A stretch of DNA of 63,042 nt, the filler included, from Diploschistes diacapsis (lineage: Eukaryota): assembly GCA_023645945.1 (NCBI GenBank). It is 4 parts of 4 records of this genome, joined end to end, with 100 filler letters (N's around TTAATTAATTAA, not from the genome) between each part and the next. Parts side by side here need not be neighbours in the genome. Positions count along the whole stretch, not along the records: positions 47,364 to 63,042 come from JALAIB010000542.1; 3 more parts are not named here. One strand, given 5' to 3'. The position numbers and the translations under genes are program-made. Positions 61,475 through 62,368 of this stretch are shown piece after piece. The notes beneath the pieces are model-generated. The model did no database searches and was not told where the DNA came from. It was given only the letters and a program-made list of their open reading frames with translations. Every line of letters begins with the position of its first letter. Positions within the stretch are counted from its first letter, which is position 1.

Positions 61475-62368
61475 ATGCCCAAATATAAGTCTTCCCTATA
61501 AATCATCTGCTTTAAGCTGACCACCCACACACTTTTGTAGGTTCACAACCCGCACCGCAGCAAGATCCAAAGCTGATACATACAGGCGACTACTGCGATG
61601 TCTACCTCACGCACGACTCAATGAGCGTGCGCAAGGCGCATAACTCGGGCAAAAACCACCTCCGCAATGTCACAGACTACTACCAGCGTACGCTTCGATC
61701 CTTAGTTTAACCTCTTGCGTCCGTAGCTAACACGGCCGTTAGAAATCGGCCACGACCGGGCACAATCGGTCATCGACTCCATAACAAGCTCCTACGCCGC
61801 CGATGCAGCAAGCGGGCCCAACCCAGGCATGCCAGGGCCAGGCGGTCCAGGCAGTGGACTGCCACCACAGTTCGCCTTCCCAGGTACGCCTCTCAAAACA
61901 AAAGACCCCCTCTTCTTCCCCTCTTCCACATTCCATGACTGTAGGACAAAAGACGGCTACAGACTGACATTCCCCTCACACAGGCGGCATACCCCCTCCA
62001 TTCCCCATGAATGGACCACCACCACCGAACGGAATGCCACGTAAGCCGCCCTCGTCCCCTTCTCCACTCACATACCCCCAAAAAAGCTAACTGCAGAAAC
62101 AGCTCCAAACATGCCTGGCGGCCGTGGCATGCCGTTTCCCTTTCCAGCCCCCAATCTCCCTGGCGGCCCCGGTGGGCCACCAATGCCCAACGGTATGCCC
62201 CCTTTCCCTCCGCCAGGTGGCATGCCGCCCGAATTTGCACGTTTCCCACCGCCGAATTTCCCTCCGCAGGGTGTGGGTCCCAGTCCTGGTGGACAGGGTG
62301 GGTTTGGGCCGCCCCCTGGAGGATTTCCTGGGGGACCACCTGGTGGCATGGGAGATGATAGGAGATAA
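61475..62368 (+). CDS. YHC1: U1 snRNP protein C (zinc finger plus Pro/Gly/Met-rich tail); 6 exons, first intron AT-AC
   Basis: Exons 61475-61484, 61531-61536, 61586-61687, 61743-61883, 61984-62040 and 62103-62368 give [57 protein letters not shown]..., the U1-C signature. Confidence 0.93.

Follow-up and report, generated by a model that had tools for sequence, protein, structure and literature searches.

An AT-AC intron, apparently of U2 type, beside a six-nucleotide exon in the U1-C gene of Diploschistes diacapsis and other filamentous ascomycetes

This work concerns a stretch of 63,042 nt (the window) joined from four records of the Diploschistes diacapsis assembly GCA_023645945.1, and in particular the first intron of a gene near its end, on JALAIB010000542.1. 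The gene is the U1-C (Yhc1/SNRPC) orthologue of a lichen-associated ascomycete resembling Lecanoromycetes. Its first intron starts with AT and ends with AC, and it is followed by an exon of only 6 nt. The AT-AC intron is genuine: its sequence, both of its termini, its positional homology and the conservation of its splice signals are all observed. We believe it is probably a constitutive intron of U2 type, kept by compensating A and C at its ends, and the homologue of a phase-1 GT-AG or GC-AG intron in other Pezizomycotina. We put the probability of this explanation at about 0.6. An earlier reading of the same DNA without database searches (the sequence-only reading) had pointed out the intron and proposed that it regulates U1-C synthesis; its structural observations have held up, while its regulatory idea we somewhat disfavour. 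Positions are those of the window, a slash in a motif marks a splice junction, and papers given by PMC number are cited for the excerpts available to us.

The gene and its AT-AC boundaries

The case for the intron begins with the zinc finger that follows it. The translation of 61588-61692, which covers nearly all of exon 3, matches the Pfam family zf-U1 (PF06220) with 62.6 bits (E 2.9e-17, against a cut-off of 22 bits) over profile positions 7-38 of 38, and exon 3 has 485 homologues. Since the match starts at position 7, the part before it, six positions with the first zinc-binding Cys among them, must be encoded upstream. The codon of that Cys is T/GC, split over the acceptor at 61585/61586, and its T comes from an exon that ends at 61536, ahead of GTAGGT. 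The Cys is present only once introns 1 and 2 are both spliced out. With these removed, the six-exon model is an intact open frame of 193 aa with the N-terminus MPKYFCDYCDVY, in which the zinc ligands C-x2-C ... H-x5-H stand together (the MPKYFCDYC start and AHNSGKNH in exon 3). The product is 69% identical to the U1-C of Lambiella insularis over 181 aligned residues. The gene model is as follows.

61475..61484, plus strand: exon 1, ATGCCCAAAT, read as ATG CCC AAA T (M, P, K and the first base of codon 4)
61485..61530, plus strand: intron 1, 46 nt, ATAAGT...GCTGAC...CACAC, AT-AC termini, apparently U2-type (type II)
61485..61490, plus strand: 5' splice site of intron 1, ATAAGT, with A at +1 and the U2-type consensus matched at +2 to +6
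61517..61521, plus strand: putative branch site of intron 1, CTGAC, with the branch A at 61520, 10 nt from the last intron base
61529..61530, plus strand: 3' terminal AC of intron 1
61531..61536, plus strand: exon 2, the 6-nt microexon ACTTTT, which completes Tyr4, encodes Phe5 and supplies the first base of Cys6
61537..61585, plus strand: intron 2, 49 nt, GTAGGT...CTGAT (61573-61577)...ACAG, canonical GT-AG
61586..61687, plus strand: exon 3, beginning GCGACTACTGC, remainder of the U1-C zinc finger (Pfam zf-U1 PF06220)
61688..61742, plus strand: intron 3, 55 nt, GTACGC...GCTAAC...TAG
61743..61883, plus strand: exon 4
61884..61983, plus strand: intron 4, 100 nt, GTACGC...CTGAC...CAG
61984..62040, plus strand: exon 5, proline-rich
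62041..62102, plus strand: intron 5, 62 nt, GTAAGC...GCTAAC...CAG
62103..62368, plus strand: exon 6, Pro/Gly-rich C-terminus, with the stop TAA at 62366-62368

The sequence-only reading had claimed that no canonical junction gives the conserved start, and we agree. MPKYFCDYC requires a 46-nt AT...AC intron, then a 6-nt exon, then a 49-nt GT-AG intron. The sole GT within 61475-61536 does sit at 61489, and the sole AG within 61500-61536 is at 61515. The frame read by the exon ending at 61536 is closed upstream by a TGA (61518-61520), and from there to 61536 neither an ATG nor an AG occurs, so a canonical acceptor is impossible for this exon. If intron 1 is retained the product reads MPKYKSSL and then stops at TAA 61499-61501, again as had been read. 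We also tried canonical alternatives from further upstream: 95 combinations of an ATG and a donor join 61586 in frame, and none of the 95 yields the conserved MPK[YF][FY]C start. From the window alone both boundaries could be moved by 2 nt, to AA...AC termini, with the same protein as the result. Only the AT-AC boundaries fit the relatives described below and the MPKFFC gene model of Aureobasidium pullulans, which settles the ambiguity.

It had been argued that a single base-call error cannot produce both termini, and independent DNA now bears this out. A run from a different study, labelled as another organism (X2), assembles into an 813-nt contig at a depth of about 82 that spans 61247-62059. 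It differs from the window by 13 substitutions and 2 indels, none of them within 61388-61619, so both termini of intron 1 are unchanged in it and base-call error is excluded. A contig from a rock metagenome (run X3) spans 61200-61491 and has the identical donor, the acceptor being outside its span. A further run, X1, is identical to the window and may be its own source.

The same intron in related fungi

A comparison of relatives had been suggested as a check of conservation. We took as relatives metagenome contigs scanned with the zinc-finger alignment, of which 309 were found and the best 80 kept, and read the DNA upstream of their DYC codons. The counts below cover these 80 loci (numbered L) and the window, 81 sequences altogether.

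AT-AC intron, 6-nt exon and GT-AG intron: 27 sequences, 21 distinct, window included
AT-AC intron alone (L061): 1 sequence, 1 distinct
GT-AG intron, 6-nt exon and GT-AG intron: 17 sequences, 12 distinct
GT-AG intron alone: 23 sequences, 20 distinct
GC-AG intron alone: 3 sequences, 3 distinct
No intron: 9 sequences, 6 distinct
Contig cut off (L048): 1 sequence

The start ATGCCNAAR followed by T is kept in all 80 sequences that reach it (79 loci and the window). At the same position after it, 28 sequences (22 distinct) have an AT-AC intron and 43 (35 distinct) a GT-AG or GC-AG intron. The check therefore bears out conservation, with AT-AC at the exact position in 22 distinct sequences, window included. 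Because others have GT-AG, GC-AG or no intron there, the AT-AC intron is the positional homologue of an ordinary intron. Intermediates, AT-AG or GT-AC, number 0 among the 71 intron-bearing sequences.

The splice signals of the AT class are nearly uniform. The donor is AAAT/ATAAGT in 22/22 distinct sequences. The branch site is CTGAC in 15, CTAAC in 6 and CTAAT in 1, its A always lies 10-12 nt before the 3' end, and intron length runs from 46 to 56 nt. The last three intron bases are YAC, in which AC is invariant in 21/21 two-intron sequences and in L061. The interior of intron 1 is not conserved across 21 sequences, and the preservation of the signals in 22/22 despite this divergence is far beyond chance. 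In the GT and GC classes AAGT stands at +3 to +6 in only 12/35, versus 22/22 in the AT class (Fisher p 1.7e-7, shared ancestry uncorrected). This excess fits a donor that lacks the +1 pair and would need an otherwise perfect match.

The relatives have TCTTCT or TCTTTT as their microexon (MPKFFC), the window ACTTTT (MPKYFC), and the intron-less locus L065 likewise encodes MPKYFC. The donor of intron 2 starts with GTAG, mostly GTAGGT, in 21/21 two-intron sequences of the AT class, window included; in the GT-AG two-intron class GTAG occurs in 0/12, and GTAAG, GTACG or GTGAG is found instead. Pairing of the AC and the GTAG that flank the microexon into a hairpin was considered by eye and rejected, because position -3 does not covary.

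Two loci have an AG 3 nt upstream of the terminal AC (L027 and L044, reading CAG and AAG before the final CAC). Both AGs must be ignored if the conserved protein is to be made; the one in L027 is in frame but alters the conserved N-terminus, and so should be bypassed. The single locus with an AT-AC intron alone, L061, is an Aureobasidium-like contig of 1045 nt (31-650) from which introns 2 and 3 are absent, although four related genomic loci have them (L062, L068, L071, L074). It could come from a transcript whose splicing was incomplete, or from a lineage in which genomic introns were lost with a 3' bias; both fit. No poly(A) or poly(T) was found at the ends of L061 or of the short intron-less contigs, so these cannot be called transcripts.

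Several side observations concern the same position. Three distinct loci have GC-AG termini there (L014, L022 and L037, with the donors GCAAGA, GCACGT and GCAAGC), so that a single orthologous intron displays each of the three U2-type terminal classes known. The rock metagenome X3 contains the U1-C of another fungus, which reads ATGCCGAAATTCTTCT directly before GCGAC, an intron-less MPKFFC start, and further relatives in it carry different introns. Loci L021 and L031 are identical to L063 in exons 3-4 (156 nt), and a 100-nt GT-AG intron 1 is present in L063 and not in the other two. The collection may thus mix genomic and transcript-derived contigs of one species.

Named species and their gene models

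Gene predictors limited to canonical sites read through introns of other kinds, so public gene models expose the genomic structure. The trace 'MPKYK...' is ATGCCNAARTATAAGT translated in frame, '...[HY]S[SF]VG' is YAC/TCTTYT/GTAGG, and 'C[QR]NIS' is the donor translated in the +1 frame. Traces of the AT-AC intron occur in Lecanoromycetes (Lambiella insularis, Gomphillus americanus), in Dothideomycetes (Aureobasidium melanogenum, A. namibiae, A. sp., Rhizodiscina lignyota, Sporormia fimetaria, Saccharata proteae, Microthyrium microscopicum, Neophaeotheca triangularis) and in Eurotiomycetes (Penicillium sp. and Polytolypa hystricis, where the acceptor side alone is visible). Taxonomy lineages were checked for eight of these species and for those on the GT side; the classes of the remaining AT-trace species are the ones to which we take them to belong. 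Models that betray a GT donor ('MPKCK/CE...') or omit the microexon ('MPKCDYC') come, among those named, only from Sordariomycetes and Leotiomycetes (Chaetomium, Gaeumannomyces, Colletotrichum, Parascedosporium, Hymenoscyphus, Golovinomyces). Judged by the named species, AT-AC would have arisen once, in an ancestor common to Dothideomycetes, Eurotiomycetes and Lecanoromycetes, with GT kept in 'sordariomyceta'.

Both termini are seen in DNA in three loci that can be placed near named fungi. Two are Aspergillaceae-like: L070 is 77% identical to P. samsonianum over 226 aligned positions, and L023 has its upstream neighbouring gene in common with P. antarcticum. The third, L068, is like Aureobasidium pullulans and about 90% identical to models of that species, their read-through of intron 2 included. 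One such model, P0220 of A. pullulans EXF-150, starts MPKFFCDYCD and is otherwise identical to the read-through models of the same species. From a locus of the L068 type this start would be obtainable only by AT-AC splicing with inclusion of the microexon. Among proteins that start MPK[FY][FY]CDYC none is near-identical to any AT-class locus, the best being P0220 (89.5% to L068, 90.9% to L062). We also tried to assign the metagenome loci to classes by summed tblastn scores and gave this up as unreliable, L060 coming out "closest" to Rhynchosporium through low-complexity matches. Since proline-rich tails inflate these scores, we rely on the named read-through models and on L023, L070 and L068.

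The damage to annotation is considerable. As many as 33 retrieved U1-C models (mostly Penicillium, Aspergillus and Aureobasidium; proteins P0122-P0163 and others) begin at an internal Met (MSVRKAHN...) and have thereby lost the first two zinc ligands. In dozens of others introns are translated or the N-terminus is invented, and the first zinc ligand is missing from these. The failure of U1-C annotation is systematic, and it is caused by the AT-AC intron together with the 6-nt exon.

How the intron may be spliced and why it persists

The sequence-only reading placed the donor with the U2 type and not the U12 type, and the signals agree with it: ATAAGT matches the U2-type consensus apart from +1, and the branch site is CTGAC. 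The donor consensus of U2-type AT-AC introns is given as /ATAAGT (PMC5029451, citing Sheth 2006), and the class is defined, with its position weight matrix, in PMC1557818. Intron 1 contains neither the U12-type donor ATATCCTT nor the branch site TCCTTAAC. Three points of background in the same reading are borne out as far as the excerpts go: Ascomycota lack minor introns and minor snRNAs (PMC10639083, PMC2846911), yeast splices an engineered AT-AC intron by way of an A-C contact between its end bases (PMC5029451, PMC11585973), and Yhc1/U1C modulates binding to weak 5' splice sites (PMC11585973). A scan of the window with Rfam matched a tRNA and nothing else, which at 63 kb says little about minor snRNAs. 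From the type II features, the lack of likeness to U12 introns, the Ascomycota without minor snRNAs and the yeast precedent we infer that the major spliceosome removes intron 1, which on these signals is a U2-type (type II) AT-AC intron.

Removal would proceed as follows. U1, and later U6, would pair with the otherwise perfect donor A/UAAGU at +2 to +6, and U2 with the branch site CUGAC, 10 nt short of the 3' end. When the exons are ligated, a contact between A(+1) and the last C would replace the usual non-Watson-Crick contact between G(+1) and the last G, and the second step would pick a site ending in C, 10-12 nt downstream of the branch A. Exon 1 would thereby be joined to the microexon, and an ordinary GT-AG intron would join the microexon to the zinc-finger exon. 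The two compensating changes at the ends, once fixed, would be held there by a fitness valley: a single reversion, to GT-AC or AT-AG, would cripple the splicing of an essential single-copy gene, and so the terminal pair would be locked. The A-C contact, constitutive removal and persistence as a locked pair, like the choice of spliceosome, are what we infer. If A(+1) dictates a terminal C, the upstream AGs in L027 and L044 should indeed be bypassed, and there is no need of a dedicated regulatory role to explain why the intron is conserved.

Several points weigh against this explanation. The GTAG at the donor of intron 2 co-varies with the AT-AC state, which hints at an extra, unexplained constraint. 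The contig L061 may be a transcript that retains just the AT-AC intron, and is the sole hint of slow removal. The P0220 model may rest on homology instead of transcripts. Finally, a gene tree from the 156 nt of alignable coding DNA in exons 3 and 4 does not have a single AT-AC group. The approximately unbiased (AU) test rejects AT-AC monophyly with p 0.0085, and the rejection persists without the intron-less rows (p 0.018) and with codon positions 1+2 (p 0.019). This tree is poorly resolved (12 of its 57 inner branches are starred) and in places conflicts with whole-protein similarity, for example in grouping L017 with Aureobasidium-like loci, and because of this conflict we give it little weight. 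If the rejection is real and not noise of a short alignment, AT-AC was gained or reverted more than once, and repeated gain would favour selection over a frozen accident.

The flanks of the gene add no help on this question. A tblastx comparison of the window flanks with the 80 related loci gave no match, so the phylogenetic signal is not extendable beyond the gene. On either side of U1-C there is a long open frame on the minus strand, at 59348-60844 (498 aa) and at 62454-63041 (195 aa, running off the window), and neither has a Pfam match; the Pfam search took in three neighbouring open reading frames and gave none. The tRNA gene lies at 56364-56444 on the minus strand (Rfam RF00005, 57.9 bits).

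Other explanations

One alternative is that the termini are functional and not a frozen accident. They would be a compatibility code that forces the 6-nt exon into the U1-C zinc finger in three Pezizomycotina classes, and might also couple U1-C synthesis to spliceosome performance; they would have been gained or kept by selection, possibly more than once, along with the invariant GTAG at the next donor. We regard this as possible, and entertain it tentatively.

A more specific form is a guard against exon skipping. A 6-nt exon is not exon-definable, and skipping it in frame (MPK-CDYC) loses two residues of the zinc finger. With A at +1, exon 1 could be ligated efficiently only to a 3' site that ends in C; it would be barred from the AG acceptor of intron 2, and inclusion of the microexon would be forced. 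AT-AC does keep company with the microexon, occurring in 21/33 distinct sequences that have it versus 1/24 of those with intron 1 only, that one being L061, which may be a transcript. But this association is phylogenetically non-independent and may go back to one event or very few. In species with two GT-AG introns, skipping would use a canonical junction and keep the frame, and predictors do yield MPKCDYC there (Hymenoscyphus, Golovinomyces, Colletotrichum, Parascedosporium). Yet this microexon is also maintained in twelve distinct GT-AG lineages, where AT-AC is absent. The AGs ignored in L027 and L044 are consistent with an A(+1) that dictates the terminal C, and the A-C requirement itself is described in excerpts of PMC5029451 and PMC11585973. 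On balance we think an anti-skipping role unlikely.

The sequence-only reading proposed instead that the AT-AC intron is a weak substrate that senses the activity of U1-C and the U1 snRNP, the retained form, with its premature stop, going to nonsense-mediated decay in a homeostatic feedback. This has an obvious attraction in that the host gene encodes a modulator of U1 binding to weak 5' sites (PMC11585973), and feedback by unproductive splicing is described among U1 and U11/U12 snRNP proteins in animals (PMC3798272, PMC5473595). Retention is unproductive, by a premature stop or a frameshift, in 22/22 distinct sequences of the AT class, but chance predicts as much for a short intron near the 5' end. 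That L061 keeps its AT-AC intron without introns 2 and 3 is what a slowly spliced intron would show, but this contig is without poly(A) and may be genomic. The pairing of the donor at +2 to +6 is perfect in 22/22, so there is no obvious weakness in recognition by U1. What A(+1) mainly impairs is exon ligation, where the terminal C makes good the defect, and this step comes after U1 and U1-C have left; the defect thus falls outside the step of U1/U1-C recognition. Beyond the core splice signals no conserved element is found in the interior of intron 1 across the 21 sequences, and the RNA of 61470-61600 is no more stable in structure than its shuffles (z +0.78). Whole classes of fungi have GT-AG or no intron at this position, so the U1-C gene has no need of such a switch. 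We find autoregulation improbable, though it could be directly tested.

The view that there is no functional AT-AC intron at all is close to refuted; on it the DNA would be misassembled or misread, the gene copy a decaying pseudogene, or the true first exon another one upstream with canonical junctions. The 95 in-frame joins to 61586 are mechanically possible, and a paralogue elsewhere in the genome is conceivable, but the X2 assembly is identical over the splice sites, the 193-aa frame is intact, none of the 95 joins gives the start that every complete locus keeps, and 22 distinct sequences from diverged fungi have the same architecture with conservation limited to splice signals. A U12-type intron removed by a minor spliceosome would share the AT-AC termini and the short distance of 10 nt from branch to 3' end, but with a donor and a branch site unlike those of that type, in a phylum described as lacking minor introns and snRNAs (PMC10639083, PMC2846911), it is scarcely credible.

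Significance and comparison with known systems

What this gene offers is a natural and deeply conserved intron, apparently U2-type AT-AC, in tractable fungi that have the major spliceosome only (Aspergillus, Penicillium, Aureobasidium). Orthologues in sister lineages with GT-AG, GC-AG or no intron make it a comparative system for the contact of first and last nucleotides, for the choice of 3' sites and for the definition of a 6-nt exon. Since the host gene encodes a protein of 5' splice-site recognition, a feedback or anti-skipping role is directly testable. There is a practical use as well. Predictors that allow only GT/GC-AG fail on the U1-C gene, and the rule AAAT/ATAAGT...YAC/NYTTYT/GTAGG...AG/GC would correct U1-C annotations in Dothideomycetes, Eurotiomycetes and Lecanoromycetes.

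The U2-type AT-AC class and rare AT-AC introns in fungi were already known; the structural claim for U1-C is well-supported. The U2-type AT-AC introns of animals, for example those of human SCN4A/SCN5A, were reportedly described by Wu and Krainer in 1997. The class is very rare: a survey of five species counted 24 in about 610,000 introns (Sheth et al. 2006, PMC1557818). As far as the excerpts describe them, the animal introns are like ours in their AT...AC termini, in an otherwise U2-type donor and in termini conserved across distant species. Unlike them, the U1-C intron belongs to a fungus without any minor spliceosome, is only 46-56 nt long, lies 6 nt upstream of the next intron, and has orthologues in sister classes that are GT-AG, GC-AG or absent.

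An engineered yeast intron with A(+1) and a terminal C is said to have been made by Parker and Siliciano in 1993. In Saccharomyces cerevisiae a nested AT-AC intron of RPL30 arises as a side product of 1-2% (Gould et al. 2016, PMC5029451). In these cases, as would be so in ours, a fungus with only the major spliceosome ligates AT-AC introns through an A-C contact of the ends. The RPL30 event, as excerpted, has a donor unlike ATAAGT, whereas the U1-C intron has ATAAGT and must be removed if an essential protein is to be made.

Filamentous fungi have been credited with AT-AC introns before. They make up 0.03% of introns in SnowyOwl models (PMC4084796), are one class among the non-canonical sites of F. 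graminearum (PMC3577648), have been hypothesised in fungal xylanase genes (PMC1557818) and occur at low frequency in fungal annotations (PMC7072748). Our intron agrees with these accounts in that Pezizomycotina accept rare AT-AC introns. Unlike ours, the accounts in their excerpted parts name neither U1-C nor the microexon nor conservation across a class, and a full-text literature search, with supplementary tables outside its scope, gave no paper linking an AT-AC intron with any of the three.

Feedback among snRNP proteins by unproductive splicing is described for U1C and U1-70K (PMC3798272) and for U11-48K and U11/U12-65K (PMC5473595). The likeness is that components of 5' splice-site recognition control each other's mRNAs by splicing choice. 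In the excerpts those systems have conserved enhancer or alternative-exon elements and were shown experimentally, while for the U1-C AT-AC intron neither an element nor an isoform of that kind has been seen.

The incompatibility of U2-type and U12-type sites is known to enforce exon choice in mutually exclusive exons. An anti-skipping role in U1-C would, hypothetically, be of this kind, with mismatched splice-site types preventing an unwanted join of two exons. It would differ in that one spliceosome would serve both U1-C introns, with the terminal nucleotide pair as the source of the incompatibility.

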